Below, piece after piece: positions 3,117 to 59,481 of a DNA stretch of 64,000 bases; position 1 is the stretch's first letter, and each line of letters starts with the position of its first letter. The position numbers were made by a program, and so were the translations under genes. The notes beneath the pieces are model-generated. The model saw only the letters and a program-made list of their open reading frames with translations, had not been told where the DNA came from and did no database searches. The stretch is from an uncultured Lachnospiraceae bacterium. Lineage in GTDB: Bacteria; Bacillota; Clostridia; Christensenellales; UBA1242. The stretch lies in NCBI GenBank assembly GCA_964606505.1, contig CAZSGM010000001.1, positions 113,588-177,587 on the forward strand, given 5' to 3'.

Positions 3117-4379
3117 TTATTCATTGGTGGGTTTTGTTAGGTGTGTCAGTGAAATGAGAATACCGAGTTTGCCGTATTCGTAAGTCAGTCCGCCCTGCAT
3201 ATACGCGGTGTATGGTGGGCAGATGGGCCCGTCGCAGCTAAGTTCAATTGTTGAGCCTGAGATAAAACTCCCGCTCGCCATAATCTCCTCGTGTGGATAC
3301 CCCGGCATTGGGCTTGGCATAAGCGTTACAAAGTTTTCGAGTGCGACGCCCTTTTGTATCCCGCGGCAAAACTCAATCAGTTCCTCCGCTGAGTGTAGGC
3401 GGATTGTCTGCACAATGTCCGCTCTTTCGTCGTCGAAACGCGGGCTGACGTCGTAACCAAGTTTTTCGAGCAGGCGGCTCGCGAGCGCCATAGTTTTTAG
3501 GCTCGACATAACGACGTTAGGCGCGTGATAAACGCCCTTGAAAAACGACAGCGTTTGGTTGAGGTTCGCGCCGATGTCCTTGCCGACGCACGGCGCAGAA
3601 AAACGTTCCGCAACATCGTTGACGTATTCAGCCTTGCCGACAATGTAACCCCCTGTTTTGGCTTGCCCCGCGCCGAGGTTTTTCATTAGTGAGCCGACCA
3701 AAATGTCCGCGCCAACTTCGGTAGGTTCGCGTTTTTCAACAAAGTCTCCGTAGCAGTTGTCGACCATAATAATGACGTCCTTATCAACCTCGCGAATTGC
3801 GGCGCAGACGCGCTCAATTTTCTCAACGCTGAGGCTTAGGCGTGAACTATAACCGCGGGAGCGTTGGATTTCAACCATTCTGACGCGTTTTTTTTGCAGA
3901 CGCGCAATAATGGCAGGGATGTCGAAGTCGTCGTTTACAAGGTCGATTTGTTCAAAACTTATCCCGTGCGCCTTGAGTGAGTTGCGGCTGTCGCCCGTAA
4001 GCCCGATTATGCTCTTGAGCGAGTCGTAAGGTTCGCCCGTGATTGAAAGCAGTGTGTCCCCGTGTTTGAGCAGCCCGAAAAACGTGAGCGAAAGCGCGTG
4101 CGTGCCCGACATAATTTGCGGGCGGACGAGCGCATCCTCGGTGTGGAAAATCTGGCTGTAAACGCGTTCAAGTTTTTCGCGCCCAATGTCGTAGTAGCCG
4201 TAACCCGTGTTTTCGCAAAAGTCTGTGCAGGTAAGTTTTACGTCCCCAAACGCCTTTAAAACTTTCGCGCTATTAAATAAGCAAACCTCTTCAAACTTTT
4301 TGAATGTAGGTTGCAAGTCCTGCTCCGCCTGCGCGCAGAGCGTCAATAATTCTTCTGAAATATCTAATTCGTTGTACAT
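3117..4379 (-). CDS. ynbB: PLP-dependent methionine gamma-lyase-family protein (YnbB / 'aluminium resistance' family)
   Basis: 420 aa. The N-terminal GYGYYDIGREKLERVYSQIF...ALVRPQIMSGTHAL pattern and length are typical of this family. Confidence 0.8.
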   Translation of the reverse strand: MYNELDISEELLTLCAQAEQDLQPTFKKFEEVCLFNSAKVLKAFGDVKLTCTDFCENTGYGYYDIGREKLERVYSQIFHTEDALVRPQIMSGTHALSLTFFGLLKHGDTLLSITGEPYDSLKSIIGLTGDSRNSLKAHGISFEQIDLVNDDFDIPAIIARLQKKRVRMVEIQRSRGYSSRLSLSVEKIERVCAAIREVDKDVIIMVDNCYGDFVEKREPTEVGADILVGSLMKNLGAGQAKTGGYIVGKAEYVNDVAERFSAPCVGKDIGANLNQTLSFFKGVYHAPNVVMSSLKTMALASRLLEKLGYDVSPRFDDERADIVQTIRLHSAEELIEFCRGIQKGVALENFVTLMPSPMPGYPHEEIMASGSFISGSTIELSCDGPICPPYTAYMQGGLTYEYGKLGILISLTHLTKPTNE

Positions 4380-16764: not shown

Positions 16765-19427
16765 ATGAATAAAAGCGAATTTGAAAATGTGAAAAAGTTG
16801 GGGGGGGGGGGTATTTAGTTGCTAAAAATAGCGGCTTAACCACTCGAAATGATGCGGACACCTGCAAAAATATGCAGGATAACCCCCATTTTTTGCAATA
16901 TTTGCAAAATTGTGAAAATGTGCAACATAATGGTAATTTCACAAAAAAAATCACTCAAAACAATGCAAAATTGCAATGCAAAAATTCATTTAAAAATAAT
17001 GACGAATTAAATTTAACAAATAATGATTTATCTATTAATTCGCACAATCAAAATAATCGCAAAAATAATAGTGTATCAAATGCGACTAGCAAGTGCGCAC
17101 AAAAAGATACATTAAAGAATATTGCGAGTGAAAATTTTACTCCTTTTAAAAATAGTTATAATAATGTAAGTTATAAAAATAATGCAACTCAAAATGCTAG
17201 TATGAGTTGCAAAAATAGTGTAAGTTGTAAACGCGATGTAAGTTGCCAAAGTAAGGCGGGTTACAAAAGCACAGCGTATTATGAAAACGGGATAAACAAC
17301 AAAATTTGCACGACAAAGTGTTCCGCTACGACAAAAATTTGTTTGTGGATTTTCTTGTTTGTTGCGTGCCTCGCGGTTACGATCGGGTTTGGCTACTTTT
17401 GCGGAAGCAACGGCAGCCTCAAGGTTGCACCTGAAATTGAAACCGCCTCAGCAGCAGGCGAAACTTGGAGCGGTAGCGGCACGCAAGCCGACCCGTACCA
17501 AATTTCAAATTATACCGACTTGCTCGCGCTTTCTACCGCTTGCAACACGCCAACAAGTGGAACAACTTACAATCACTATCAAAGTGTGTATTTTAAATTG
17601 ACAGCAGATATAACAATAGCAGCGGCGGACTTAAATAATACAACGACCTCCACAACTTGGACGCCAATCGCCTGCGATCCAACAGGGGTTAATTATGCTA
17701 ACTGCTATTTTTCGGGTATTTTTGACGGAGATGGGCACACTATAACTTACGCGGGGGATGTAACTGTAAATGTCGGCGTTTCTACTGCTTCAAGTCCAAA
17801 TTTATATTATGGCTTGCTATTTGGATATGTTTTGGGCGACGCTAGTGATACTGCTAGTGCGACGTATGGAATTGTTAAAAATACCAACATAACATTCGGA
17901 GCCGCTAGTAGTTCAGCCACCGCTTTTACTTTGAAACTTGTTGCGGTTAGTTCCAATAACTGCATTGGAACGTCTCAAGTTGGTGGACTTGTTGGCCGTT
18001 TAAGCAATGGCAAGGTTTCACAATGCAAATTTAATGGTAAGCCATTTAATTTTACAGTTGAATGTGATAGTATAAGTGGTTGGGATCGTGGTTTTGCAGG
18101 AATTGTCGGATATACGTCAAGTTCCAGAGTGGACAATTGCGAATTTAATACCGATTATTCATTTTCGGATTTGCCTACTGGGATTTTAGAGGGCGGTGCA
18201 GCCGTAGTTGGGTATGCACCTAATAGCACAATCATCGAAAAATGCAAGGTAAATGGGAATGTAACATTTTTAAAAGAGGCTTCGGGAACTAATCGCGCAG
18301 AACTTGGTGGAATATTGGGGAGTGGCTCAGCAAATGTGAGCAATTGTGGTTTTTATGGTAACTTTGTTTGCAAGTGGCGGTCGGGTTCAGGGACTAAAGC
18401 GGGTGCAATTGCTGGGGGTGCTACTAATATTGAAAATTGTGTTATAGAGGGGGAAGTAACTTTAGGGGAAAAAGGCGGGGCTGCATCCTGCTCGGGGATA
18501 ATAGTCGGTAGCGCTACAAGTGTTTCAAATTGCTATGCTAATGTGAGCAATTCATCACTTTGTATGACTGGCACGGATGGTGAGTTTGGGATAATCGCAG
18601 GTAGTGTAACGAATATGAGCAATTGCGCAATAAATGTGCAATTAATTGATTTAATAAGGGCGACTAGCCTAGTATCCTATGCTAGTGGCACAGTAAACAA
18701 TTGTATAGCAATTGTGGATGTTGGGTCATATAGCGGGACTCTATATCCATTTTCTAATGGGTTTTATAATTGTGTAATAATAGCATCAGGGACAAATGTT
18801 ACTGCAGCGTACCCAATTAAATCCAATACCACCAACACCTCAGATACGACTAACGGGCTTTATTCACTAACATCAACTGACGCAAACCTTAGCGAGTTGA
18901 AAAGTAAAACCACCTATACATCGGGGTCAACTCATTTCACTTGGAACACTGACGGCGATGTTGCGGGGAGCACAACAGGTGGGCACGCGTGGGATTTTGC
19001 AAACACTTGGATGATTAACAGCACTATGAATGATGGGTATCCAACGCTGCAAATGCTGATAACATCCTACAACATCACGCTCAACGTAACCACTAATCTT
19101 AGCGGCTCCACCTTGGGAACAACCACAGGCTCAAGCGGTTCATCCTCAGCAACCGCCACGGCAAACCCTGCCGACCAGTTCATAATTTACCGCCTTGACG
19201 AGTCTGGAAACCTCGTCAACCAGTTTGTCGTCCGAAACGGCAGCACGGTTACCTTTGAAGTCGACAAAAACAAATCCTTTACTATAATGATTAACTACAA
19301 ACTTTATATGGTAACAACAATCGGAACCGAGTCGACAAACAAGAAAACATACACTCCAACTGCCGACACGACAATCGACATCGACATAACCGCCCCTTCA
19401 GGCGTCAACAACTGGATTGTTATTTAA
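16765..19427 (+). CDS. GLUG-repeat surface protein paralog A, interrupted at the 5' poly-G tract (phase OFF as assembled)
   Basis: AAGGAG RBS, then ATG 16765. The leader MNKSEFENVKKLGGGG hits TAG after the 12-G tract. The main frame (track ORF 16872-19427) is open back into the tract and fuses if the tract is 13 or 10 G. Architecture: Asn-rich N-region, TM helix ICLWIFLFVACLAVTIGFGYF, GLUG repeats, conserved C-terminal domain. Confidence 0.8.
16800..16811 (+). repeat. Homopolymeric G12 tract (candidate slipped-strand phase-variation site)
   Basis: Counted directly: the final g of block 16791-16800 plus 11 g. Confidence 0.9.
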
Positions 19428-20895: not shown

Positions 20896-21009
20896 TATAT
20901 TTAATTAGGAAGTTGAGTAGAAGTGGGGAATTTTGGGCGCATTTTTTTTAAGGTTGGGGGTTGATTGCGCGAGAAGTTTTTTGATAAAATACGGGAGGAG
21001 GTTATACAA

Positions 21010-21921
21010 ATGAAACTTAATGATTGGATAGAAATTTGGGCACAGACAAGTTTCGTCAACATCAAAGAAAGAAGCCATGACGTTTATAATTACTACCTCA
21101 CTTTTCACATCTTAGAGCGTCTTGGCAATTTGCAAGTCGAGGAAATTTCGCAGGAAACGCTGCAGAGTTATGTTTTGTCGCTTGCACTTGGAGACAAATG
21201 TTTTTCAAGCAACACTATCGCGGAGAGTTTTCGCGTGCTGAAGGCGTGCTTGCTCGATTATTATGAAAAATACGACATTAAGCCTGTGAAGTTCAAGGGT
21301 GTCAAAATTCCTACGACGGCGCGCCGCAAAATTAGGTGTTTTACCGAGGGCGAGCAGCGCAGGATTGAAAACCGCGTCAACCTTGTTCGCAACCCGAGCG
21401 AAATTGGCGTACTGGTCTCGCTTTACACAGGGTTGCGGCTGGGCGAAGTGCTAGCGCTGACGTGGAACGACGTCGACTTTAGCAAAAACCTAATCTACAT
21501 AGATAAGGCGCTATACTATAAAGGGAAACAGATTGTAATTTCGACGCCAAAAACGCCGTCGTCCATTCGCGTAATCCCGATACCGCAGTTTTTGCTGGTG
21601 TTGCTGCGCGAGAGGAAGAAACACGCGGTTGGCGAATACGTTGTTGCGGATGAGTTGGGGTTGCCGATTATACCGCGCACGTACCAGTACAGGTTTTACG
21701 CGCTGCTCAAGCGGGCGAAGGTCGAGAGACGGGGTTTTCACTCGCTGCGCCACACGTTTGCAACGCGCGCCCTTGAGTGTGGTATGGACGTTAAGTCGCT
21801 CGCCGACGTTTTGGGACACGCGAACCCTGTCGTAACACTCAAGCGTTACGCGCACTCAATGCTAGATTACAAAAAAACTATGATGAACAAAATCGGCAAA
21901 TTGTACTCGCGCGAGTATTAA
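21010..21921 (+). CDS. Tyrosine site-specific recombinase (phage integrase family)
   Basis: GLRLGEVLAL (Arg I), HSLRHTFAT (H-x-x-R), LGHANPVVTLKRYAHS (His/Tyr) and an N-terminal SAM-like domain. GGAGG RBS before ATG 21010. Confidence 0.9.
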   Translation: MKLNDWIEIWAQTSFVNIKERSHDVYNYYLTFHILERLGNLQVEEISQETLQSYVLSLALGDKCFSSNTIAESFRVLKACLLDYYEKYDIKPVKFKGVKIPTTARRKIRCFTEGEQRRIENRVNLVRNPSEIGVLVSLYTGLRLGEVLALTWNDVDFSKNLIYIDKALYYKGKQIVISTPKTPSSIRVIPIPQFLLVLLRERKKHAVGEYVVADELGLPIIPRTYQYRFYALLKRAKVERRGFHSLRHTFATRALECGMDVKSLADVLGHANPVVTLKRYAHSMLDYKKTMMNKIGKLYSREY

Positions 21922-22346: not shown

Positions 22347-22383
22347 AAATCTTTCGCTTATGTGTCCCATAAGCGAAAGATTT
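22347..22383. repeat. Left recombination-site candidate (IR-L): 16-bp-arm palindrome around the asymmetric core TGTCC
   Basis: AAATCTTTCGCTTATG TGTCC CATAAGCGAAAGATTT, preceded by A8. On the minus strand this reads as a hairpin followed by T8. Confidence 0.85.
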
Positions 22384-22391
22384 ACACCATT

Positions 22392-22420
22392 ATTGTAGCA
22401 AATTAGATAAAAAATATCAA
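22392..22420 (-). promoter_or_regulatory. Near-consensus sigma-A promoter inside the invertible cassette, currently pointing away from gene 22596
   Basis: Minus strand: TTGATA (22420-22415), 17-nt spacer ending in TGc, TACAAT (22397-22392). Confidence 0.6.
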
Positions 22421-22505
22421 ACATTTTGCCAAAATTATTGAAAAATCATTAAAAAATGGTCATTTTTTGCTATTTTTCTCCTCAAAAAATCGAATTTTGA
22501 AGAAT

Positions 22506-22536
22506 ATCTTTCGCTTATGGGACACATAAGCGAAAT
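22506..22536. repeat. Right recombination-site candidate (IR-R): same arms, core GGACA (reverse complement of the IR-L core)
   Basis: 22506-22535 is the exact reverse complement of 22352-22381 (30/30). Confidence 0.85.
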
Positions 22537-22595
22537 AAAATGCCCTGAAAACGCAGATAATAACTGACGGGGCACAAAATAAGGAGTTTTACGCT

Positions 22596-25349
22596 ATGGA
22601 AAAAAATAGGATAGGCAAAACCATACTACTGAATGTGGGGTTGGTTATTGCAGTGATTATGCTTGGGGTGGGCGCGTTTTTTGCGACACGGGCAGAAAGC
22701 GGCGAAGCGGGCGATTTTGTTTTGACGGGCGAAGGTGTTGGGGCAGGCGACTACGTAACTGCAGACGGGGCGCACAAAATAGGTGTTGCAACAGACGAGG
22801 GCGGGGGTACTACAATTGAATATTTCAACACTGCTGCGCCCGAGACGACGTACATGCTAACTGCTAGCACCACGACGTCGGCGGCAGGGGTTGAGACGAC
22901 AACCTTGACAGGAAAACTTGGCACGGACAATAAAAATGCAACGTTTGTTATGTTGAACGATAACGCCATACTTTGCGTTTCACATATTAAGTACGCAACG
23001 GCGAGCGGGAACGTTGTTTTGTGCAGGTACACGCCGTTTGTGAAAACATACACGCCGACAGCGGACGCAAACGGGGTAATTGAGGTTTGGCGCAATGACG
23101 CAAAAGTTAGCGCATTTGCAAACTTCCAAGCCGCGTTCAGCTTTGCGCAAAACAACGACACGATTAAACTAAAAAGCAACTTTTTGGCTTCTGAGGGCGC
23201 GGCGCTCGTTGGTAAAACTCTCACAATTGATGGCGGCAACTACCTGCTCGACAAGTCGCAGTGGGCGAACACGGTTTTTGCCGTTGCAGAGGACGCGCAA
23301 CTCACAATTAACAACCTAGACATAGACGGTGGGGCAACCAACTGGGCGGTCGACTTCGACGCTGTTACTTTTGAAGGCGCGACAATCCCGCTTGTAGCGG
23401 GTTCAGCGGATAATGACCCACAAACAAGTTATCCTGCCGTTACTTCAAAGGGCGAGTTGATTGCTAATAATTTAAACATTAGCAATATTTATTCGTCGAC
23501 AGCTGAGGGGATTGGGTTATTTGTGGCAAAAGGGAAAATAAACATTAGCAATAGCGCATTTTCACACTTAGCTTCAAGTATTGGGGGTGCTATGCGCATA
23601 GGGTGCGATATCATTGAGGAAAGTTTGGATAGTTACCCCGTAGAAAGCGTAGTTTTTAATAGTGTCGATTTTACTAATAATTATGCAGCGGCTTGGGGTG
23701 GTGGTGCAATTTATATCGGAAACATTGGCGAGGGGAGTTTTGAAGATTGCAACTTTGATACAAATGCGGCAAGTGGGTTAAATGGCGGCGGCGCAATTAG
23801 TATGTACACACCAGATTATGCTGCGTACAATTTGGGGCTAACTTATGGCAAAATAGATATAAACAATTCAATTTTTAATAATAATTGGGCAGGGCGCTGT
23901 GGCTTTGCAATTTATAACCGCGATGTAGAATTTACAATAACGAACACAAAGTTCACTGGGAATATCGGCGCATATCGTCCTGATGGGGCTGTCGCCACGT
24001 TTTTTTGTAGAGTAAATAGGTCAAACTATCGTTTCGCTGTGCAGATAATTAAGAATTGTGTATTTGAAAATAACCAAGGAGGTGTTGCCTGCATTGCAGA
24101 CAATGCGGGAGCTGCGGATATTAGAATTTCTGATACTCAATTTAAAAACAATGTGGGGAGTTCGAGCACATTGTTGTATACAGGTGTTGGGGAAATTGAT
24201 AACTGCACATTTGAAAATGAGCAAGTAACTGGAAGTGTAATAAGCGTGCCAATGTACAACGGAGATAGTCGTTATGAAAACGCAGGGCTGACGGGTCCAT
24301 CGCTAACAATCAAAGACACAACTTTCACAGGCACTCCTGACGGCGTTGATGATATTTCAATGAAAAAAGAAGAAGGAAGGGTCGATGTAGCCACAGAGCC
24401 CAAAATAATAATTGAGGGCGAAACAAAGGCAAACATTTCAATGGAGCACGGTGCAGAACTAGATGTTGACGGAATGCTAGATGGTAGTGTTACTTGCGCG
24501 GTGGACACCCCTAGCGATACTAATGTAACAGTTGGCACAAACGGCAGCATAACTGGCGGCGTTGTGCAGTACTATAACCTAACCATAACCTACCCTAACC
24601 CCGACAACGACACCGAAAGCCTAACTGAAACAATAACTATTGCGGGCGGCGCAACCAGTTCGCACGCGATTGAAATGTTGCTCGGCGTGAGCAAGGAAAA
24701 CCACACGCTCGCGCTTTACACAGATAGCGCGTGCACAATTGTGTGGGACTACAACTGCGACGGCGCGGAAACGCTGTACGGCAAATGGGAGTGGTCGGTT
24801 ACCATAAACTATTATGACCAAGGCGGGGTAAGGTTTACCGGAACGCACGGCGCGGCGTTTGCGCAACGACACATCAACGGAAGAAAAACAATTATAGACA
24901 CGCCAACAAAAGGCGGTTACATCTTTGATGGGTGGTACTTGGGCGACTCAACTTGCTCAGACGAAAGCAAAAGGGTTACTGAACTTAGCGCGGACGTGAA
25001 TTACGAAAGCATTTCGCTTTACGCTAAATGGCGAGTTTTTGAACAAACAATCACGCTTACGTGCCAAAATTTCACTACGCAACAGTTTATGGTGTACGTG
25101 TTTATTGGGGACGACCTTGTTATGCAAGTAAAGCCGACCGCAACAACAACCATCACGCTTAGCAGGCTAAAAAACTATGACAAAACGGTTCGCATTTGTT
25201 TTGTGTACGGTTACCACGGCAAAATTGAGTACACAAGTTTGACAGGCGCGAAAGCAAACGGGCGCAGCGTCAACGTTTCGCTTGTCGAAAATACGCAAAT
25301 CAATTACAAAATAACAACTCCAAACGTCAACGCAAGCATAATTGTTTAA
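22596..25349 (+). CDS. Large surface protein: N-terminal signal/anchor, PMP/pectin-lyase-like beta-helix repeats, Listeria-Bacteroides-type repeat, C-terminal domain related to the GLUG paralog tails
   Basis: AAGGAG RBS. GGAIY/GGGAIS-type repeats (NNYAAAWGGGAIYIGN, GLNGGGAISM). GGYIFDGWY motif. The C-terminus ...NVNASIIV aligns with the ...VNNWIV[VI] tails. Confidence 0.85.
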   Translation: MEKNRIGKTILLNVGLVIAVIMLGVGAFFATRAESGEAGDFVLTGEGVGAGDYVTADGAHKIGVATDEGGGTTIEYFNTAAPETTYMLTASTTTSAAGVETTTLTGKLGTDNKNATFVMLNDNAILCVSHIKYATASGNVVLCRYTPFVKTYTPTADANGVIEVWRNDAKVSAFANFQAAFSFAQNNDTIKLKSNFLASEGAALVGKTLTIDGGNYLLDKSQWANTVFAVAEDAQLTINNLDIDGGATNWAVDFDAVTFEGATIPLVAGSADNDPQTSYPAVTSKGELIANNLNISNIYSSTAEGIGLFVAKGKINISNSAFSHLASSIGGAMRIGCDIIEESLDSYPVESVVFNSVDFTNNYAAAWGGGAIYIGNIGEGSFEDCNFDTNAASGLNGGGAISMYTPDYAAYNLGLTYGKIDINNSIFNNNWAGRCGFAIYNRDVEFTITNTKFTGNIGAYRPDGAVATFFCRVNRSNYRFAVQIIKNCVFENNQGGVACIADNAGAADIRISDTQFKNNVGSSSTLLYTGVGEIDNCTFENEQVTGSVISVPMYNGDSRYENAGLTGPSLTIKDTTFTGTPDGVDDISMKKEEGRVDVATEPKIIIEGETKANISMEHGAELDVDGMLDGSVTCAVDTPSDTNVTVGTNGSITGGVVQYYNLTITYPNPDNDTESLTETITIAGGATSSHAIEMLLGVSKENHTLALYTDSACTIVWDYNCDGAETLYGKWEWSVTINYYDQGGVRFTGTHGAAFAQRHINGRKTIIDTPTKGGYIFDGWYLGDSTCSDESKRVTELSADVNYESISLYAKWRVFEQTITLTCQNFTTQQFMVYVFIGDDLVMQVKPTATTTITLSRLKNYDKTVRICFVYGYHGKIEYTSLTGAKANGRSVNVSLVENTQINYKITTPNVNASIIV

Positions 25350-25914: not shown

Positions 25915-25919
25915 AAATG

Positions 25920-25948
25920 TTGACAATCGCAAAATTTTTCAGTATAAT
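25920..25948 (+). promoter_or_regulatory. Consensus sigma-A promoter of the AAA-ATPase gene
   Basis: TTGACA (25920-25925), 17 nt, TATAAT (25943-25948). Confidence 0.75.
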
Positions 25949-25966
25949 ATCCCTGAGGTGAAGAAG

Positions 25967-27148
25967 ATGATACGAAGAGAGCACTACATTGAGCAGGTTC
26001 GCCCGTTTTACGATTCGGATTTAATTAAAATCATTACTGGAATTCGCAGGTCTGGCAAGTCGGTTATTATGGAACAAATAATGGACGAGATAAGGCAAAA
26101 GACGGACAACATTATTTATGTCAATTTTGAGGACAAAAAATCCTCGGCGAACATAACGAGCGCGGCTAAGTTGATTGCTTACGCAGAAAACAATAAAAAA
26201 GAGGGCAAGTGCTATGTGTTCTTTGATGAAATCCAGATGTTGTACGGGTGGGAGGAGGCGTGCACGTCTTTAAGGTTGTACGGCTACTCTGTGTTTATCA
26301 CGGGTTCGAACTCAAAACTGCTTTCGAGGGAGTTTGCGCGAGAACTTTCGGGTAGGTACGTTGCGTTTCGCGTGAGGCCGTTTATCTACAAGGAAATTGT
26401 TGAGTACTGCAAGGAGTTGGGGCGCGAGGCAAGTGTTTCAGACTATCTCGTGTGGGGCGGGTTCCCAAAACGTTTTGAGTTTGAGAGCCCCGAGGCGCAA
26501 TATAGGTACCTAAACGATTTGGATGATACGATTGTTATTAACGACCTTATTGCTCGTTACAAGATACGAAAGGAGAGTTTGTTTAAGAGTTTAGTAAACT
26601 ATGTTTTGCGTAGCAACGCGCGCATTTTCTCGGCAAACTCCATTCGCGACTACGTTAAGCAGGAGCACGAGGGTTGTTCGGTCAATACGATAATGAAATA
26701 TCTTTATTATCTGGAAGAAGCGTATATAATTGAGCCGGTTAAGCAGTATTCCACCAAAACAAAAAAAGAACTTTCGTATTATATAAAAATCTATAATGCG
26801 GACGTGTGCTTTAACTCTATCCGCTGTCCAAACAACCGCTTTGACCTCACGCACAACCTTGAAAATATTGTTTATAACGAACTTATTTATATGGGTTATG
26901 AAGTGTATGTTTACAATAATAACGGTAAGGAAATCGACTTTTTAGCGACCAAGGGGACAAAACAGTATTACGTGCAAGTTGCCTATAGCGTGGCAGAAGA
27001 AAAAGCGTATTTGCGCGAGTTTGGGGCGTTTAAAAATTTAGACAACCTTTCTCAAAAAATCATTATCACTAACGACGACATTGACTATTCAACAAGTCTT
27101 GTAAAGCACATAAAATTGAAAGACTTTTTGATGATGGAAAGTTTGTAA
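25967..27148 (+). CDS. AAA+ ATPase with a DUF4143-type C-terminal domain
   Basis: GIRRSGKS Walker A, VFFDEIQ Walker B-like. Start at ATG 25967 after GAGGTG (the track uses GTG 25958). Confidence 0.85.
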   Translation: MIRREHYIEQVRPFYDSDLIKIITGIRRSGKSVIMEQIMDEIRQKTDNIIYVNFEDKKSSANITSAAKLIAYAENNKKEGKCYVFFDEIQMLYGWEEACTSLRLYGYSVFITGSNSKLLSREFARELSGRYVAFRVRPFIYKEIVEYCKELGREASVSDYLVWGGFPKRFEFESPEAQYRYLNDLDDTIVINDLIARYKIRKESLFKSLVNYVLRSNARIFSANSIRDYVKQEHEGCSVNTIMKYLYYLEEAYIIEPVKQYSTKTKKELSYYIKIYNADVCFNSIRCPNNRFDLTHNLENIVYNELIYMGYEVYVYNNNGKEIDFLATKGTKQYYVQVAYSVAEEKAYLREFGAFKNLDNLSQKIIITNDDIDYSTSLVKHIKLKDFLMMESL

Positions 27149-27237
27149 TCAAATTAAAATGTGCAAAATCGCGTTAAAGTGCGTAAAAGGGGGTTAAAAC
27201 GCTTGCAAAGCGCGCGAAAATGTTGTAAATTTTACTT

Positions 27238-29271: not shown

Positions 29272-31754
29272 ATGGTAAATAATGACGAAATGAAAAACGC
29301 GAAAAAACTGGGGGGGGGGGGGGGTATTTAGTTGCTAAAAATAGCAGCTATACTGCCCAAAATGATAAGGATACCTGCAAAAATATGCAGGATAACTCCC
29401 AATTTTTGCAACAATCGCAAAATTGCGAAAATGCGCAAAAAAATAATAATTTAGAAAAAATATCAATCCAAAACAATGAAAAACTGCATTGCAAAAAATT
29501 AATTATTAACACAGAAAGTAATGATGAATTTAATTTAATAAATAATGATTTATTAATTAATTCAAGCAAGCAAAATGATTGCGAAAAAAATATTAATGTA
29601 TCAAATATTTGTAGTAGTAAATGTGCGCAAAGTGATACATGTAAAAATAATACAAGAGAAAATTTTTCTGCTTTAAAAAATAGTTATAACAATGTGAGTC
29701 ATAAAAATAATATAAGTTACAAAAATAATATAAAGGCATATTCCGCTACGACAAAAGTTTGTTTGTGGCTTTTCTTGCTTGTAGCATGCCTCGCGGTTAC
29801 AATTGGTTTTGGTTGCGTTGGCGGAAGTAGTGGGAACGGCAGTTTAAAAGTTGCGCCCGAAATTGAGACTGCCACTGCGGCAGGTTCAAGTTGGAGCGGC
29901 AGCGGAACATCGGGTTCTCCCTATTTGATAAGCAACGAGGCGGAGTTGACCGCGCTGGCTACTGCGTGCAACTCAGGCACAGCGTATTCGGGAACATACT
30001 TTAAACTAACTCAAGATATTTCAATAACATCTACAAACTGGGCGCCAATCGGATTTGACGAAAGTTCGGCGGGTACGCCTACAAATGTTTTTTCGGGGAT
30101 TTTTGACGGCGCGGAACACACAATTACAATAAGCAACACTTTCAGTAAGGCTTTTGATTTGACGGTTGCGGGCGGCTATGCGTATTGTGGTGCAGTATTT
30201 GGATTTGTTCAAAATGGACGAGTGTTAAATCTTAATGTGAAGTTTAATCTTGGCGCAAATTCAATGTTTGATCATTCATCAGCAACAACAACTAAGATGT
30301 ATTATTATATGTATGGGGGGATTGTTGGGGGGTGCCAGTCAGCAGATAGTGAAAATCCCATTATTCAAAATTGTAGTGTTTTAAGTGAAAATAATTCCGA
30401 AATCAAAGTAAATTTTGGTTTTAACAGATACTGTTCTTTTGGTGGGATAGTAGGCAGAGTCATTGGGAATGGAATAATAGATAATTGCTCATTAAACGCT
30501 AGTTTATCTTCTATGGGACACTCTTTTAAGGAGGGGGGGATAGTTGCATACTCAGAAGGTAAGGTTACCAATTGCAGTGTCAATTCAGATATAATTTGTG
30601 GGGGAACCGTAACCTCAGGGGCTTATGTGACTGACCAAAAACGTGGGGGTATTGCAGGGGTGGCAGAAACAATCGAAAATTGCGCATTTAATGGTGGAAG
30701 TTTTACTTGTGATGCTGGAGAAATATATGGAGTTGGAGTTATAGCAGGTGAAGCGACTACTATTAAAAATTGCAAGGTTCTAAAGGGGGCGGATAGCACA
30801 AAGAAAATAAAGATTGAGACTGGGTCAGGGACAAAAAATGGTTTTCCTGCGGGAGTTATAGCGGGGGCTTGTAAATATATTGAGAATTGTTATACTAACG
30901 CAATTATTGATTACGTCAAAACGTGGGGAGATAGCCGCGCATATGCAGGAGTAATTGCAGGGCAAGCAACAACTGTGAAGAACTGCAAAGCTGACGTCTC
31001 TATAGGTAGTTATAGTTCTAATGACATTTGTTACTTTGGGCACATTGTGGGGGCTGTAACCACATCGACATTAAACGGTTCAACCGTAAATCCGAGTATA
31101 ACAAACTGCTTCATACAAGTATCTACAACGGCTAGTCAGCCGACAAATAACGCGCAGGTTTGCTCAAATGTGAGTAGTGGAACCCTCACTACCTACAACT
31201 GCGTATTTATAGGGGTTACGGGGCTAAAATTCACAAGCAGTATTGCGGCAACTGCGGGCGACAGTTACGGGTTATACGCCTCAAGTTCAGATGTTGCTGC
31301 GCTAAAGAAAACATCCACCTACGCGGGAGCGGGCGCAAATGGTTACACTTGGAACTCCGCCGCGCCGTGGGACTTCGAGAGTGCGTGGTGTATTGAAACT
31401 GAGAACGAAACCTATCCAACACTGCAATTTATGAGCGCGCCGTGCACAGTTACAATAAATGTTACAACAAGCGCGGGTGCGGGCGGTGTTGTCGGAACGG
31501 ATAAGTATATCCTCTACAAACTAAATAGCGCGGGCACGGTCGTCAACCAGTTTGTCGTTAGCCACAACAGCGTAGTAACCTTTTTGGCAAAACGCGGCGA
31601 GAAAATAACGCTGCTAACAACTTACAGGTCGTACCTTTATTGGACGGTAGACGGCACGCAGGTTGATAAGTACCAGTTCACGCCGTCAGGCGACACTACA
31701 ATCGCCATACACATAGCCGCGCCTGCCGTCATCAACAATTCAATCGTGATTTAG
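29272..31754 (+). CDS. GLUG-repeat surface protein paralog B, interrupted at the 5' poly-G tract (phase OFF as assembled)
   Basis: The ATG 29272 leader MVNNDEMKNAKKLGGGG hits TAG after the 15-G tract. The main frame (track ORF 29385-31754) fuses with 16 or 13 G. Same architecture as paralog A. Confidence 0.8.
29310..29324 (+). repeat. Homopolymeric G15 tract
   Basis: Counted directly (1+10+4). Confidence 0.9.
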
Positions 31755-32182: not shown

Positions 32183-32282
32183 CACAAAGAAAGTTGTTGC
32201 GGGCTAAGGAAATTGTTGGGGCTTGAGAAATTATTAGGGGTCAAAGAAGTTTGTTAGTGGCACAAAGGAAGGGAATGTTATG
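32183..32282 (+). repeat. Five tandem ~19-20-bp degenerate units (AAGGAAATTGTTGGGGC-like) running into the start codon of the mTERF-like gene
   Basis: Units start at ~32183, 32204, 32223, 32242 and 32262, with an extra copy at 32126. Each contains an SD-like AAGGAA/AAAGAA/GAGAAA word. Confidence 0.6.
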
Positions 32283-33569
32283 ACAATAGAAGAAATTTTA
32301 ATGAGCAGATATGGGTGGAAGCAAGAAGATATTGAGGCTAAGCGCGAGGTACTTGCGCACATTTCACATCTAACTGACGATGATAAAGTTTACGCAAAGG
32401 GGAATTTTTACGTAAAAACATTTTTTATGACTTATGCCGACCTTAGGAAGGTGATAAAGGCATTTCCGCAAATGCTGGGGCTGTCGGAAGATTATGTTAT
32501 TAACAAGATAGATTACTATGTATCTATGTTTGGGAACGCCGAAAGTGTTCGGAAAGCGTTTATTAAATTTCCGCAAATTTTAAGCATTTCAAACGAAACA
32601 ATTAACGCGAAAATAGAGAAATACAAGAAGAGATTGCACTGCGAAAGAGCGCACGTTGGGGCTATGTGGGCTGAGTATCCGTCAATTCTTCATTATTCAG
32701 ATAAATATATTGACGGAAAAATTGACTACTTAATAAAAACCTTTGAGGTCGAAGAGTACGAACTTGCTTGTATACTTAAACGTTCGCCACAGATTTTGGG
32801 GTTATCCAGCGAAACCATTACTGCAAAGCGCGACTTTTATTGCGATGAACTTGGGTTTAGCCGCAAAGCCGTCGTTAAGCTTGTTAGGGATTTTCCGACA
32901 ATTTTGGGGCTTTCCAACGAAACGGTTTTGTATAGGTTCAACTTTTTCAAGGCGCAGTATGGGTTGGACGATAAGCATGTCGCGAAGATGTTTACAATGA
33001 TACCGCAGATTGTTGCTCTGCCCGACGAAACCATAATGAACAAGCAACATTTGTTTAGCGATGTGCTCGGCGTAACTAAGGGGGAGTTTGCCTCAATTAT
33101 TAGCAGACACCCGCAGGCGCTCACAATATCGGCGACCGCGCTGAAGTACAAGGCGGACCAACTTGCTTCACTTGGTATTGCGCGAAAGGAACTGCTTAAT
33201 GACCCGATGATTTTGAGTTCGCCTGCCAATATGCTTAAAGTTAGGTACATTATTTTGAGGCAGGTTGCAACGCGCGAAGAGATTTTAAAGTCCAAGGGTT
33301 GGTATATGTTCAACCAAAGCAAGTTGTACTCTAGGTATGCGTATATAAAGGATGTATTAAAAAAAGAGCCTACCTTGTCTGACTTGTTGCGTAGCCAACA
33401 GCGCTTTGAAATGAAGTTTGGATGGATTGGGATTGATGATGACTGGACTGAACCTAAATTTACAATGGCAATAGTTGACGAATTGGCGCAAAAGGTGGCA
33501 AAAGAAGAAAAAATCGAACTTACGCGCAAAGACCGTGAGGTATTAGGCACTTGCATAGAGAAGGAGTAA
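32280..33569 (+). CDS. mTERF-repeat protein (helical ~32-aa repeats)
   Basis: At least eight repeats of the pattern FPQ[IM]L[GS]LSxExIxxKxxxxxxxxGxxxxxVxKxxxxxP (e.g. FPQMLGLSEDYV, FPQILSISNETI, SPQILGLSSETI, FPTILGLSNETV, IPQIVALPDETI, HPQALTISATAL). Confidence 0.75.
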   Translation: MTIEEILMSRYGWKQEDIEAKREVLAHISHLTDDDKVYAKGNFYVKTFFMTYADLRKVIKAFPQMLGLSEDYVINKIDYYVSMFGNAESVRKAFIKFPQILSISNETINAKIEKYKKRLHCERAHVGAMWAEYPSILHYSDKYIDGKIDYLIKTFEVEEYELACILKRSPQILGLSSETITAKRDFYCDELGFSRKAVVKLVRDFPTILGLSNETVLYRFNFFKAQYGLDDKHVAKMFTMIPQIVALPDETIMNKQHLFSDVLGVTKGEFASIISRHPQALTISATALKYKADQLASLGIARKELLNDPMILSSPANMLKVRYIILRQVATREEILKSKGWYMFNQSKLYSRYAYIKDVLKKEPTLSDLLRSQQRFEMKFGWIGIDDDWTEPKFTMAIVDELAQKVAKEEKIELTRKDREVLGTCIEKE

Positions 33570-33872: not shown

Positions 33873-33896
33873 TGGGGTTTGCTTTTTGTTTTTTTG
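33853..33896 (+). terminator. Intrinsic terminator overlapping the stop codon of 33573-33872
   Basis: GCAAACCCCAC / GTGGGGTTTGC 11-bp stem followed by a T-rich run. A G7 run follows at 33897-33903. Confidence 0.7.
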
Positions 33897-34130
33897 GGGG
33901 GGGCAAATTTGTGAGCGTGCGGATGTTGTGGCGAGGAAGGCAGGAAATTTTGGGGAAAGACTTGTAAATTTTGTCTTAGTGTGGTATAATTATTTTTAGA
34001 TACTTGCAAAATAATATATTATATAGGTTTTACAATGTGTGAAACTTTACAACAGATGGAGAGTGAGAGTTGTTATCATATAATGGTTAGGTTATTTCGC
34101 AAATTTTAACATAATGGGAATGATGAGGGA

Positions 34131-37281: not shown

Positions 37282-38396
37282 ATGAAAAAGAGAACAAATG
37301 TTCTAATATCGGGGGGGGGGGGGGCTCAGAAGTTGACCAAAATGACAGCGATTTAAAGCCCCAAAAAACTTGTGAAAAAGCAACTTTATTGAGTGCGCGC
37401 CAGCAACAAAATAATAGCGCATCATCTCAAAATGATTTAGGTACAAAAAGCCAAAATGTCAATAATGATTATCCGCAAAGTGGATTGAGTGAAAAACAAT
37501 GCTTGAATGGAAATGCCACTAGCAATGCATACAAACTTGATAATCCAAATTTTGGCAACAATATAAAACGAAGAAATAAAAAGAATTTAATAGCAATACT
37601 AATTTGTTTTGTATTGCTTTTGTCATTTACATTTGGGGTGTGTTGCACTGCAAGTTTGTTGCATGACTCAAAAACTGCAACAGGAACAATCGAGTTTGAG
37701 TTTGAGGAGTTGGGACCAATGGTTAGGTTTTCTTCTTCGCAAGCCTTTTCTCTTTCCACTAATAACAATGCAAAGAATTGGGACGGAACACTTTCATATT
37801 CCGCAAATAGAACTGCATTCACAGAGTGGGACGGCACGACTACTTTGAATGCCGGCAAGAACGGGAGTAAATACTACTTATATTTGGCTGGTGAAAATAA
37901 CACATACCTTTCAGGGACGAGCCAGGGTTCGACTTCTAATAATTGTGGTTGGAAATTGACTGGGAATGCAAACATTTCGTGTTCGGGGAATATTGAAAGC
38001 CTACTTGATTACCCCACAGTTGCTGATGGGGAGCATCCAATGATGGCAAAATTTTGTTATCAGTATTTATTTTATAATTGTAGTAAATTGGTGAGCGCAC
38101 CAACATTGCCCGCAACAACATTGACAGGTGGTTGCTATTTTTATATGTTCAATGGCTGCACTTCGTTAAGGGTAATCAACAGTGAAGCTAAAAGTGGTCT
38201 AAGTGGATATGAAACGGTATATTTGGATATGAGCAAATGTACAGAGGTATCGGGGAGTTGTAATAATATGTTCGCAATACAGCGAATGCTAGTCAATCTG
38301 GATTTAAAGCCACGCCAGAAAGTACTACAATTTACTACATACATAGTAGTAACAGCATTGTGCCAGCAACAAGTAGTTCTTGACGAAGATAAATAA
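37282..38396 (+). CDS. Membrane-anchored LRR-like (BspA-type) surface protein, interrupted at the 5' poly-G tract (phase OFF as assembled)
   Basis: GGAGG RBS, then ATG 37282. The leader MKKRTNVLISGGGG stops at TAA 37354 with 14 G. The main frame (track ORF 37389, TTG) is open back into the tract and fuses with 15 or 12 G. There is no in-frame ATG before the TM helix. Contains the CYQYLFYNCSKLVSAPTLPATTLTGGCYFYMFNGCTSL repeat pattern. The 3' end is uncertain. Confidence 0.7.
37311..37324 (+). repeat. Homopolymeric G14 tract
   Basis: Counted directly (10+4). Confidence 0.9.
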
Positions 38397-56134: not shown

Positions 56135-56941
56135 TGTACCTATCGACCTTTTTGTTTTAGTAGTATAATAGCAAATAAAACTTTTTTTGTCAACACAATT
56201 TTAGTTTAGTTGCGAACTTTCGCTAAATAACTCGCTTTTTCGCCGCGAAATGCGTTGTTTTTCGGAAAACTTTGGCATTGAGCGGGGGAACGCTCGGGGC
56301 TTGTGAAAGGAATGCGGGCGAAAATTAGCAATTGACAGCGCGTGTTAATTGGTGGGTGGTTTATATAAAAACCGACTGCGACTCGGGGCAACAACGGGGA
56401 AAGTAAAAGTTAACTCAAAAAAATGAGCGGATAACTTAAAAAGAATAAAGAATACCTAATAAAAATGAAAACAATAAAGTAATATATTAAAATAAGGCAA
56501 ACAATAAAATAATGCCTTAAAATAAAGCAAGACCCATAAAAAAAGTAATACCTTAATATAAAATAAATAAATACATTAATAACAAATACACATTTCAAAA
56601 AGAAAGGAAAGCGGTTACTTCTTGTTTGCTTATCTTTATGCAAGTATTTATTTGAATAATTAAAACATTTAAAATGTCGCAAATGTGTTTGGATTGGTAC
56701 AAAAAATAAAAAAAGAAAAGCAAAGTAAAAGTTCGCTTGATAATCTGTGAAAAACCGCAGAATATGGCAATATATTAAAAAATAAAAAAGTAAAAATCCG
56801 TAGGACGTTGCAAAAATATTAGAAGGATATAAAATTATTTTAAAGGGGGTTAAAATGTTTGATATTTTTTTGCGGGTGTGATATACTAAAAAATGATAAA
56901 AATGCAATTTTTTAAAGAAATTTGTTAAGGAGTTTTTTATT

Positions 56942-59419
56942 ATGATTAAAAGCGAATTAGAAAACGTGAAAAAAGTGGGGGGGGGGGGTATAACTGCTAA
57001 AAACAGCAGTATACCCGCAAAAAATAGCAGTTATCCTGCAGATTTTGACAAAAACTGCAAAAATTCACAATATTTAGATAATACGAAAGAAAAAATAAAA
57101 AATGCACATATTACCTATAATGAATGTACTACAAAAACCATGTGTGCAGAAAAGGTGGGTAATATTATGTCAATTGAAAATAAAAATAAATATAAAACTA
57201 AAAATGGAAATAATAAAGTAAGCGTTCCTCAAGTATCCCATAATGAAAGCGCGATAAACTGCGCGTGTGTTACGAGTGTGGGTTGCGAACAAAATCACGG
57301 CGAGAAAAAAGTTTCAAAACACGTATGCGATAATTGTGAAGAGTTTTGGCGTAGGAATTGCGAAGCGGGTTGCGCGAACGCTATTAAGCCGAATGATACT
57401 AAGTTTAATAGGGATGAACGGGCGGAAGCAAAAGTTCGAAACGCGTTCACGGCGAAACTTTGCTTGTGCCTTTTTGCAATCGTTGCGTGCGTTGCGTGTG
57501 CGCTTGGGTTTTGCTTTGCGAGTTTGAGTGAGAGTTCCGAGTCAAATGTTATTAGCGCAGCGGCAGCATTTGGCGGTGGGACGGGGACTGAGGCTGACCC
57601 GTACTTGATAAGTTCGTTTGCAAATTTGAAGTCGCTGGCAACTAGCTGCAACGGCAACACGACTTATGTGGACAATTATTTTAAACTTACCGCCGATATA
57701 ACAATTAGTGGAACTGACTTAAGCAGTTGGACTCCAATTGGTTGTGATACAACAGGCAACAATACGGATAACCGCTACTTTTCAGGTATCTTTGACGGCG
57801 ATGACCACACAATCACTTATCAGGGCGCTGTAAATAGAAGCATAGGGGGCAAAACTATATATTGGGGGCTGCTGTTTGGGTATGTAAAGGGCAATGCTAC
57901 AAGCACAGTGGCAGCAACCAACGGCATTGTAAAAAATATAAATATTGTGCTTGTTGGTAATGAAACAACTACCCCCGATGAATTTCAGATGACGTTTACT
58001 GGTGGGGCCCTGCTTATTGGGGGGATTGTGGGTCGTTCCAATGCGGGGGTAGTGGATAACTGCAATCTCTCAGGCAGCGCAATGTCAGTTACATTTTCTT
58101 CTGGTAATGATAACTACGTTGGCGGCATTGTTGCTTCCGCTTCATACGTTAACAGCTGTAAATTTTATGCGGATTTCAAAGCGGAAGGTGGTGTATATTG
58201 TTGTGGCGCAATATGCGGAAATGCCTCTACTTACATGTCGACAATTCAGAATTGTGAAGTTATTAGTAAGGTAAACATATCAAAAACAGATAGCGGGTCT
58301 GATTGCTTGGGTATAGGAGTAATTGGGGGATTCGTGGAAGAAGATATCTTAAATTGTTATGTTAAAATAAAGGAAAATTCCTCAATAAGTGCTACTGGAT
58401 TTAATTATGCGAGATGTGGATTGATTGCGGGGCTGGCGAGTAAAAAAATCGACAACTGTTATGTTGAGGCTGATATGGCGTCATTTGTAATTGTTGCTGA
58501 TGACACGTATGCTGGGCTACTTTGCGGGGCTAATGGCGCAGCAAAGGTGTCAAATTGTCTTGTCAATGCAACAATTGACACGGCGTCAGTAGGGAACGGC
58601 TTTTATTTTATTGCCAACCACGGAACGACAAATAACTGTGTAATTATTGCAGATATTGGAACATTAACAGCGTCAAGTGGACCATATCTCCTTGCTCCCT
58701 CATACGCAACCGCCTACAATTGCGTAGTAATTACAAAAGTTGGGGGCGTCGGCACAACTTATCAAATTTCAAGTTCAAACGCAGGCACGACAGCAGACGG
58801 GATGATTTACGACGCAACTAACGGGCTCTACTCCGTGGCTTGGAACAGCAACAGCGTCCTTGTAAACGAACTCAAGCAAACGAGCACCTACACGAGCGGA
58901 ACAGCCAACTTTGCGTGGAACACCGCGGGCGGAACGACAGGCGGAACGGCTTGGAGTTTCGCACCTACCTATGGAAGTGAAACGGGGGTATGGTTCATCG
59001 CAGGTCAAGAAAACGACGGCTTCCCGTTACTAAAACAATTTTACGTGCCGTCGATAATCAGCGTAACAATTAACGTTACAACCAACCTAGGCGGCTCAAC
59101 CACGGGTAGCGGCACAACGGGTTCAATGGGCTCGGCGAGCGCGGGCGGAACCGCGGGCGCAGTCAACAAATTCATTCTCTACAAACTAGACGGACTAGGA
59201 AACGTCGTCAACCAGTACGTTGTCGAGAGTGGCAGCACCATACAATTTGAAAGCACAGCCTGCGACGCCTTTACAATAATGATAAACTACAAACTTTATA
59301 TGGTAACGACAATCGACGGCGAAAATGCCCTGCAAAAAACATTTACTCCGTCCGAAAATAAAACAATTAACATATCCATAACCGCTCCCGCAAACGTCAA
59401 CAATTGGATTGTTATTTAA
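56942..59419 (+). CDS. GLUG-repeat surface protein paralog C, in frame through its poly-G tract (phase ON as assembled)
   Basis: AAGGAG RBS. The single 825-aa ORF MIKSELENVKKVGGGGITAKNSS... has the same architecture (Asn/Lys/Cys-rich N-region, TM, GLUG repeats, C-terminal domain ending NNWIVI). Confidence 0.9.
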   Translation: MIKSELENVKKVGGGGITAKNSSIPAKNSSYPADFDKNCKNSQYLDNTKEKIKNAHITYNECTTKTMCAEKVGNIMSIENKNKYKTKNGNNKVSVPQVSHNESAINCACVTSVGCEQNHGEKKVSKHVCDNCEEFWRRNCEAGCANAIKPNDTKFNRDERAEAKVRNAFTAKLCLCLFAIVACVACALGFCFASLSESSESNVISAAAAFGGGTGTEADPYLISSFANLKSLATSCNGNTTYVDNYFKLTADITISGTDLSSWTPIGCDTTGNNTDNRYFSGIFDGDDHTITYQGAVNRSIGGKTIYWGLLFGYVKGNATSTVAATNGIVKNINIVLVGNETTTPDEFQMTFTGGALLIGGIVGRSNAGVVDNCNLSGSAMSVTFSSGNDNYVGGIVASASYVNSCKFYADFKAEGGVYCCGAICGNASTYMSTIQNCEVISKVNISKTDSGSDCLGIGVIGGFVEEDILNCYVKIKENSSISATGFNYARCGLIAGLASKKIDNCYVEADMASFVIVADDTYAGLLCGANGAAKVSNCLVNATIDTASVGNGFYFIANHGTTNNCVIIADIGTLTASSGPYLLAPSYATAYNCVVITKVGGVGTTYQISSSNAGTTADGMIYDATNGLYSVAWNSNSVLVNELKQTSTYTSGTANFAWNTAGGTTGGTAWSFAPTYGSETGVWFIAGQENDGFPLLKQFYVPSIISVTINVTTNLGGSTTGSGTTGSMGSASAGGTAGAVNKFILYKLDGLGNVVNQYVVESGSTIQFESTACDAFTIMINYKLYMVTTIDGENALQKTFTPSENKTINISITAPANVNNWIVI
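56977..56988 (+). repeat. Homopolymeric G12 tract
   Basis: Counted directly (4+8). Confidence 0.9.
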
Positions 59420-59451
59420 GTTGCAAAATATAAATAAAAACACACTACAAA

Positions 59452-59481
59452 AAGAGGAGAAAATGTTTTCTTCTCTTTTTA
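59452..59481 (+). terminator. Intrinsic terminator after paralog C
   Basis: AGAGGAGAAAA / TTTTCTTCTCT stem (one G-U pair) then T5. Confidence 0.6.

Follow-up and report, generated by a model that had tools for sequence, protein, structure and literature searches.

Comparison with described phase-variable systems

Among the described systems closest to the one considered here, the genome of Campylobacter jejuni NCTC11168 has 29 loci whose G/C tract reaches at least 7 units (PMC4965091, PMC6321876), and in Bifidobacterium breve UCC2003 a G-tract replication-slippage switch in sortase-dependent pilus genes has been proven by maximum-depth sequencing (PMC9187656). A recent review of phase variation covers the Clostridia only through the invertible elements of Clostridioides difficile (PMC11868660). 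As a case study, we analysed a 64-kb stretch of contig CAZSGM010000001.1 (the window, by which we always mean the whole stretch at its full length), which carries four poly-G tracts shortly after the start codons of four genes: gene C, whose tract of 12 G (56977-56988) had been singled out by an earlier note on this DNA, its paralogs A and B, and locus D. We regard it as likely, and with good confidence from the sequence comparisons reported below, that these tracts serve slipped-strand phase variation of surface-protein genes, in other words that they are simple-sequence-repeat (SSR) contingency loci.

As in the polyG/polyC loci of C. jejuni, the G homopolymers of the window are intragenic, one unit would be enough to toggle translation, many loci are present in one genome and surface structures would be affected. 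C. jejuni is a proteobacterial pathogen, however, whereas the host here is a Gram-positive-type Clostridia commensal, and the tracts are 12-15 G long as against mostly 8-11 in C. jejuni. Moreover, unlike in C. jejuni, they are always found about 12 codons past the start, within a promoter-leader cassette common to a paralog family, and their predicted targets are large membrane-anchored beta-helix proteins instead of glycan-modifying enzymes.

With B. breve, the system has in common a gut commensal host, an intragenic G tract whose length would decide on a surface adhesive structure, and the presence of equivalent tracts in related strains. It differs by the phylum (B. breve belongs to the Actinomycetota), by the targets, which are pilins in B. 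breve, and by the number of genes (two loci there, at least 8 paralogs here), and switching is deduced here from the comparison of assemblies.

Paralogous phase-variable surface families with repeats in the leader are also known from Neisseria (opa genes, with CTCTT repeats) and from Mycoplasma (variable lipoproteins). The present family resembles these by being multigenic, by its conserved 5' switch module, its variable exposed region, its signs of recombination between paralogs and, presumably, its independent switching; the repeat is however a mononucleotide G run, coding for Gly4-5 in a predicted cytoplasmic N-terminal tail and not in a signal peptide, and both the fold (a GLUG beta-helix) and the host lineage are different. 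The GLUG proteins 3n6z and 6xjb (the N-terminal domain of the S. pneumoniae IgA1 protease) are related to the product of gene C by the Glug motif and by a fold match; unlike them, this product has no detected peptidase domain, a signal-anchor that follows a disordered tail of ~165 aa, and a family-specific C-terminal beta-sandwich. No earlier description of poly-G or SSR switching in Clostridia, in Christensenellales or in GLUG proteins was found in the literature and, as far as the literature searched extends, the mechanism is a well-known one (phase variation) while the lineage and the protein family are new for it.

Four poly-G tracts and their reading frames

The features on which the argument is built are listed below; a locus is called ON when its leader ATG is joined through the tract to the long open reading frame (ORF), and OFF when it is not.

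56942..59419, + strand: gene C, 825 aa (from the translation, Pfam and an AlphaFold model)
56859..56887, + strand: promoter-like site of gene C, TTGATA, 17 nt, TG-extended TATACT, 10/12 matches, putative function
56927..56932, + strand: Shine-Dalgarno site AAGGAG of gene C, 9 nt 5' of the ATG, read directly
56942..56976, + strand: leader of gene C up to the tract, MIKSELENVKKV, ATG at 56942
56977-56988, + strand: poly-G tract of gene C, G12, in frame (ON), codes for Gly4
16765..19427, + strand: paralog A, leader ATG at 16765, OFF, 887/886 aa if G13 or G10
16800-16811, + strand: poly-G tract of paralog A, G12, OFF
29272..31754, + strand: paralog B, leader ATG at 29272, OFF, 827/826 aa if G16 or G13
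29310-29324, + strand: poly-G tract of paralog B, G15, OFF
37282..38396, + strand: locus D, ATG at 37282, OFF, 371/370 aa if G15 or G12
37311-37324, + strand: poly-G tract of locus D, G14, OFF
59449..59480, + strand: terminator-like hairpin 3' of gene C, 14-pair stem, tail with no clean T run (weak evidence)

In gene C, the final G of a GTG codon of the leader is the first G of the tract, which continues as GGG GGG GGG GG. The translation of 56942-59419 starts with MIKSELENVKKVGGGGITAKNSS, reads ITAKNSS after the tract and extends over 825 codons to the first stop, so that direct reading and translation bear out two claims of the earlier note, namely that G12 is in frame after the ATG at 56942 and that the ORF behind it is uninterrupted. 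At A, B, C and D alike, the tract is found 10-13 codons from the ATG, and a GGAG-type ribosome-binding site precedes each ATG.

Such runs are otherwise absent from the window: the 21 matches to G9 all fall inside the four tracts and all on the + strand (0.19 matches are expected in shuffled sequence, so that chance does not account for them), the longest other G run in the 64 kb is a G8, and the window contains no C run of 6 or more. The use of GGG in the tracts is also non-random: GGG accounts for only 28% of the Gly codons in the window ORFs, and every other Gly3 run among the 12,481 window codons is written with mixed codons and not with pure GGG.

We then considered the effect of tract length on the frame by rebuilding each locus in silico with -2 to +2 G. 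Resized gene C gave the full-length protein (825 aa) only at G12 (also G9/G15), and resized A, B and D gave theirs at the lengths indicated in the list; with the remaining tract lengths, a stop was encountered at all four loci 2-10 codons past the tract, and exactly one length class modulo 3 per locus yields the full ORF. The OFF copies A, B and D are each 1 G short of ON and otherwise intact over 370-890 codons. In gene C the tract is followed by TATAACTGCT, which is 2 nt shorter than the TATTTAGTTGCT that follows it in A and B, and it is for this reason that G12 is ON at C but OFF at A, an explanation that the earlier note had put forward and that both the translation and the resizing confirm. 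The same resizing agrees with its count of one ON locus (C) and three OFF loci (A, B and D) within the 64-kb window. Its description of C as the one ON member of the set holds inside the window, but not beyond it, as at least two further paralogs attributed to the source contig are apparently in frame (see below).

The self-folding of G-quadruplexes was considered as a role for the tracts and set aside, as it needs runs of at least 15 and as the frame logic accounts for all four loci. The Mollicute code 4, prompted by the AT-rich leaders, was likewise discarded in view of the GC content of the window (42.7%), of ORFs reaching 2084 codons under table 11 and of the Clostridia-type homologs. Judging by protein similarity, the host is an uncultured Christensenellales-like Clostridia bacterium: the PF06838 enzyme encoded at 3117-4379, a protein of housekeeping type, is 67-71% identical to metagenome-assembled genome (MAG) proteins labelled 'Christensenellales bacterium', 'Candidatus Caccovivens' and 'Clostridiales bacterium', and has 99% matches in other metagenomes.

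A paralog family headed by a common cassette

By sequence similarity, A, B and C form one small protein family. In a collection of 5.8 billion proteins, 15 match C at E < 1e-45, the next matches being generic GLUG-motif proteins at E ~1e-25, and at least 8 family members are attributed to a contig of 321,128 bp, taken to be the source contig. To this contig are attributed P0001, which is gene C, and also P0002 (leader ...KKDELENTKKVGGGGITAKNS) and P0015 (MLMKNMKKLGGGGYLVAKNSS), both in frame. At least two further in-frame paralogs therefore appear to lie outside the window on the same source contig, in which case C would not be the sole ON member of the genome; the phase of these off-window paralogs is read solely from the N-termini of the called proteins. 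Considering the whole family, the canonical leader is in frame in 5 of 16 proteins (P0001, P0002, P0009, P0011 and P0015), while 8 of the 16 start at an internal Met, GTG or TTG past the tract, as gene callers treat out-of-frame copies. A proportion of about one third of the members in the ON state is what would be expected for randomly phased three-state switches.

The segment from promoter to tract, made of the promoter, the Shine-Dalgarno site, a 12-codon leader and the poly-G, behaves as a cassette that is conserved across paralogs and strains: the promoter element of gene C is also kept upstream of the homologs L002, L003 and L004, and its leader is conserved in A as well as in these three. 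No ribosome-binding site precedes the internal Met (MQDN...) in A and B, which makes re-initiation from it in the OFF state seem unlikely.

P0001 and P0002 are 100% identical over their last ~210 residues and only 44-54% identical in the central ectodomain, a mosaic that suggests either a recent gene conversion between paralogs or an assembly collapse. In another genome (NCBI contig of 23,713 bp), P0003 and P0006 begin with MLWKKTNWKTRKKWGGGG, which corresponds to the canonical leader read in another frame, with an upstream ATG that overlaps it as the start; a full-length protein might in that strain result from two of the three tract classes. No relatives of the family were detected in the GTDB species-representative genomes, either with the family profile or with a degenerate DNA pattern of the tract and post-tract sequence, and the source species thus seems to be absent from that collection. 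The sole JGI metagenome match to the degenerate pattern, L001, is an unrelated G-rich sequence and was set aside as a chance match.

Tract length in other samples

Other assemblies were used as a proxy for reads. Exact matches to the proteins adjoining the tracts led to Logan contigs that stem from five sequencing runs and share 97.9-100% identity with the window. At locus C, the G12 of the window is replaced by G11, an OFF length, in L006 (SRR14160765), which is 99.9% identical over 6.1 kb with the tract as the sole indel; L008 ends within the tract at 11 G and L005 right before it. At locus B, the G15 (OFF) of the window corresponds to G13 (ON) in L009 (SRR22923250), and at locus D the G14 of the window corresponds to G7 in L010 (SRR27361839, 98.2% identical). 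L011, which covers the region upstream of A, stops 13 nt short of the leader ATG and does not include the tract. All three loci that can be compared within the species (C, B and D) thus differ in tract length, between flanks that are near-identical (98-99.9%). L009 also differs from the window by the absence of an AAA_14/DUF4143 ATPase gene (25958-27148), an indel of ~1.25 kb just upstream of B (window 25918-27164) in an otherwise collinear region.

In the ENA assembly ERZ27271042, composed of MEGAHIT contigs, the promoter, Shine-Dalgarno site and leader recur in three members of the family, all of them OFF: L002 has G13 in a C-type context (in which ON is G12 or G15), L003 has G14 in an A-type context (ON at G13) and L004 has G13 in a C-type context.

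As far as sequence can test them, all the features of an SSR contingency locus are found here. The tracts (G12, G15, G14 and G12) exceed the length of about 7-8 from which a G/C homopolymer counts as hypermutable; they lie inside ORFs, so that the number of units is predicted from the frame to alter expression; and the repeat number differs between samples at the same locus for C, B and D, with lengths taken from assembly consensus. These differences, seen locus by locus in conspecific contigs of other samples, back the contingency-gene reading of the earlier note.

Proposed mechanism and alternative explanations

We propose that G12 is the switch element of a translational SSR contingency locus. 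Each paralog would be headed by the conserved cassette described above, from promoter to poly-G, and slipped-strand mispairing at replication would add or remove G's. One of the three length classes would join the leader ATG to the long ORF (ON), while the other two would end in a peptide of 16-24 aa (OFF). An unrelated surface protein, that of locus D, probably of the leucine-rich-repeat (LRR) type, would carry its own poly-G at the same position. The paralogs having divergent ectodomains, their independent switching would lead a clonal population to show differing combinations of surface proteins. That replication slippage occurs at a high rate and is reversible, and that OFF alleles make no protein, we infer from the sequences.

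Several observations weigh against this proposal. The ON and OFF states come from consensus assemblies of homopolymers and not from reads, and every sequencing chemistry is prone to errors in runs of 12-15 G, such that an individual ON or OFF state may be wrong by one G. Three mismatches follow the tract in L006 (CATAAC...), and the end of this contig may therefore be chimeric, with a part from another paralog. The D leader of L010 (3902-3940, the ortholog of window 37282-37330) has lost 1 A (ATGAAAAG as against ATGAAAAAG) and meets an early stop, and this copy may thus resemble decay rather than switching, being perhaps locked off. Logan contigs often terminate at or near the tracts, which fits heterogeneity and 31-mer paralog repeats equally; we considered such breaks as a sign of within-sample heterogeneity and did not find them decisive, the paralogs having more than 31 nt in common around the tract.

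One alternative explanation is that of a sequencing or assembly error at homopolymers, in which the tracts are real, their lengths and the ON/OFF pattern are artefacts, and all copies are maybe in frame and stable. Every platform indeed miscalls long G runs, and short-read assemblies are interrupted at the tracts or right next to them. However, ON as well as OFF lengths are obtained from three independent types of assembly (the NCBI MAG, MEGAHIT k141 contigs and Logan contigs), in which clean, unique sequence borders the tracts left and right. The lengths differ by as much as 2 nt at B and 7 nt at D, which is above the typical consensus error, and 9 of 11 tracts read as DNA are out of frame, a proportion hard to ascribe to error alone. 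In addition, a stable Gly4-5 does not need pure GGG, and the other Gly runs of the window are mixed-codon. We consider this explanation quite unlikely.

RNA polymerase stutter or ribosomal frameshifting on GGG-GGG offers another explanation, according to which all alleles give some full-length protein and tract length tunes expression. Bacterial RNA polymerases are known to slip on homopolymers of at least 9, the OFF alleles are all one nucleotide from ON, and the out-of-frame stops come close behind the tract, as would suit such a process. By contrast, documented transcriptional slippage concerns mainly A/T runs, neither a stimulatory structure nor a conserved slippery heptamer context was seen, and the DNA tract length itself differs between samples, which is sufficient for a genetic switch. 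As a replacement for slipped-strand switching, slippage at the RNA level is in our opinion very improbable; transcriptional or ribosomal slippage could nevertheless add leaky expression on top of a DNA switch.

Finally, A, B and D might be pseudogenes in decay, with C as the one functional gene of a redundant family and the tracts as non-adaptive mutational hot spots. This idea can appeal to the three frameshifted loci out of four and to the D ortholog of L010 with its second lesion (one A lost) and short G7. It is hardly tenable, however, given that A, B and D are free of stops and frameshifts over 370-890 codons outside the tract and that a single G is enough to restore any of them, that paralogs and strains alike have kept the promoter, the Shine-Dalgarno site and the leader, that the segment from the tract to the first internal Met is open and protein-conserved in OFF alleles (YLVAKNS...CKN), and that B is ON in another strain.

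Predicted architecture of the family proteins

The architecture of the C protein was derived from the family alignment and from an AlphaFold model (mean pLDDT 66). Residues 1 to ~165 form a low-complexity, disordered tail rich in N, K, S and C (pLDDT < 35), followed by a transmembrane (TM) helix (~165-187) that has basic residues on its N-terminal side and acidic ones on its C-terminal side, and because of these flanking charges the N-terminus is predicted to be inside and the C-terminus outside. Residues ~210-660 are confidently modelled as a beta-helix (pLDDT ~90), which is followed by a Gly/Ser/Thr linker and by a conserved C-terminal beta-sandwich (~740-825). The paralogs diverge most in the central beta-helix, with about 12-54% identity to C, while the TM region and the C-terminus are conserved.

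The Glug motif PF07581 is detected in C at 23.5 bits for a cut-off of 20.5, A scores below the cut-off (17.7) and B has no match. The top fold match of the C model is 3n6z (E 2.4e-05, TM-score 0.58 on the target), a GLUG domain annotated 'putative IgA1 protease' from Bacteroides ovatus, and this match supports the assignment of the family to GLUG; later fold matches are generic right-handed beta-helices, found in lyases, tailspikes, the adhesin PfbA and the pneumococcal IgA1 protease 6xjb. A, B and C are accordingly predicted to be N-in single-pass membrane proteins with a GLUG-type beta-helix ectodomain. An action of the C product at the cell surface is a prediction only, made from the signal-anchor TM helix, the basic residues, the beta-helix and the GLUG motif, and a role in adhesion or in the evasion of host or phage, with variable exposure of adhesin-like or antigenic beta-helices to immune defences of the host, to phages or to binding partners, we infer from the same picture.

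An identity as IgA1 protease or M26 zinc metalloprotease was considered and rejected, as there is no Peptidase_M26 domain and only the GLUG beta-helix is in common. Scans of C with Pfam and NCBIfam revealed no peptidase family, and no HExxH is visible in its translation; the NCBIfam scan returned no match at all, nor did a sequence search of the PDB chains.

Locus D

Locus D, which the earlier note had counted in one set with A, B and C, does not belong to the family: its leader, MKKRTNVLISGGGGG, is unrelated to that of A, B and C and its ectodomain is also different. Most of its homologs (E 1e-50 to 1e-86) carry PF13306 (BspA-type LRR, LRR_5), and locus D itself has no Pfam match at E <= 0.01. 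Judged by these BspA-like homologs, its product would be a leucine-rich-repeat surface protein. D and A/B/C have in common the general layout of N-terminal tail, TM helix and ectodomain, and the presence of a poly-G in this unrelated locus therefore argues that a poly-G after the start codon is a habit of the genome and not only the inheritance of a single family.

Other elements of the window

Within 22347-22537, an imperfect inverted repeat of 43 nt (86% complementary, arms at 22352-22394 and 22493-22535) flanks a segment of 98 nt (22395-22492) that carries a promoter-like TTGATA-17-TG-TACAAT on the minus strand, facing a hairpin terminator and directed away from the gene of a 917-aa surface protein (22596-25349); a tyrosine recombinase gene (20965-21921) lies just upstream of the repeat. 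This segment is a probable invertible promoter in the OFF orientation, which would make it a second kind of phase switch in the window. Since each arm contains a palindrome of 13-16 bp, the repeat may alternatively be a simple hairpin or a REP-like element. The 917-aa protein, which is unrelated to the family, ends with ...NYKITTPNVNASIIV (25200-25349) and in this resembles the C-terminus of the family, ...ITAPANVNNWIVI (59270-59419), which hints at a C-terminal beta-sandwich or sorting module common to surface proteins of this organism.

The G8 run of the window (33896-33903) is intergenic, not in a leader, and directly follows a terminator-like hairpin downstream of an mTERF-domain gene (32280-33569) that encodes 429 aa with three strong PF02536 matches (E 2.9e-45). 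The mTERF family is best known from mitochondria and plastids and is an unusual annotation for a bacterium.

Significance

Taking a step further, one may picture a large combinatorial system of surface variation, in which at least 8 beta-helix paralogs stand behind portable polyG cassettes and undergo gene conversion, and in which unrelated genes have independently acquired a poly-G (D) or an invertible promoter. This wider picture is tentative, and we hold it at slightly less than even chances; if true, it would mean that antigenic or adhesive variation reaches, in a lineage of anaerobic commensal Clostridia, the extent known from Neisseria or Mycoplasma.

On the practical side, gene callers truncate or mis-start genes of this type and assemblers break contigs there, and the tracts can serve as markers for within-host population bottlenecks from metagenomic reads. 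SSR phase variation has been documented mainly in a few host-adapted pathogens, and the switches of gut commensals are mostly invertible promoters, together with the pilus G tract of Bifidobacterium. A multigene poly-G 'phasome' in an uncultured member of the Clostridia would extend the mechanism to a major and poorly studied part of the gut microbiota, and would mark the GLUG beta-helix family as probable surface proteins exposed to the host, to phages or to the immune system.

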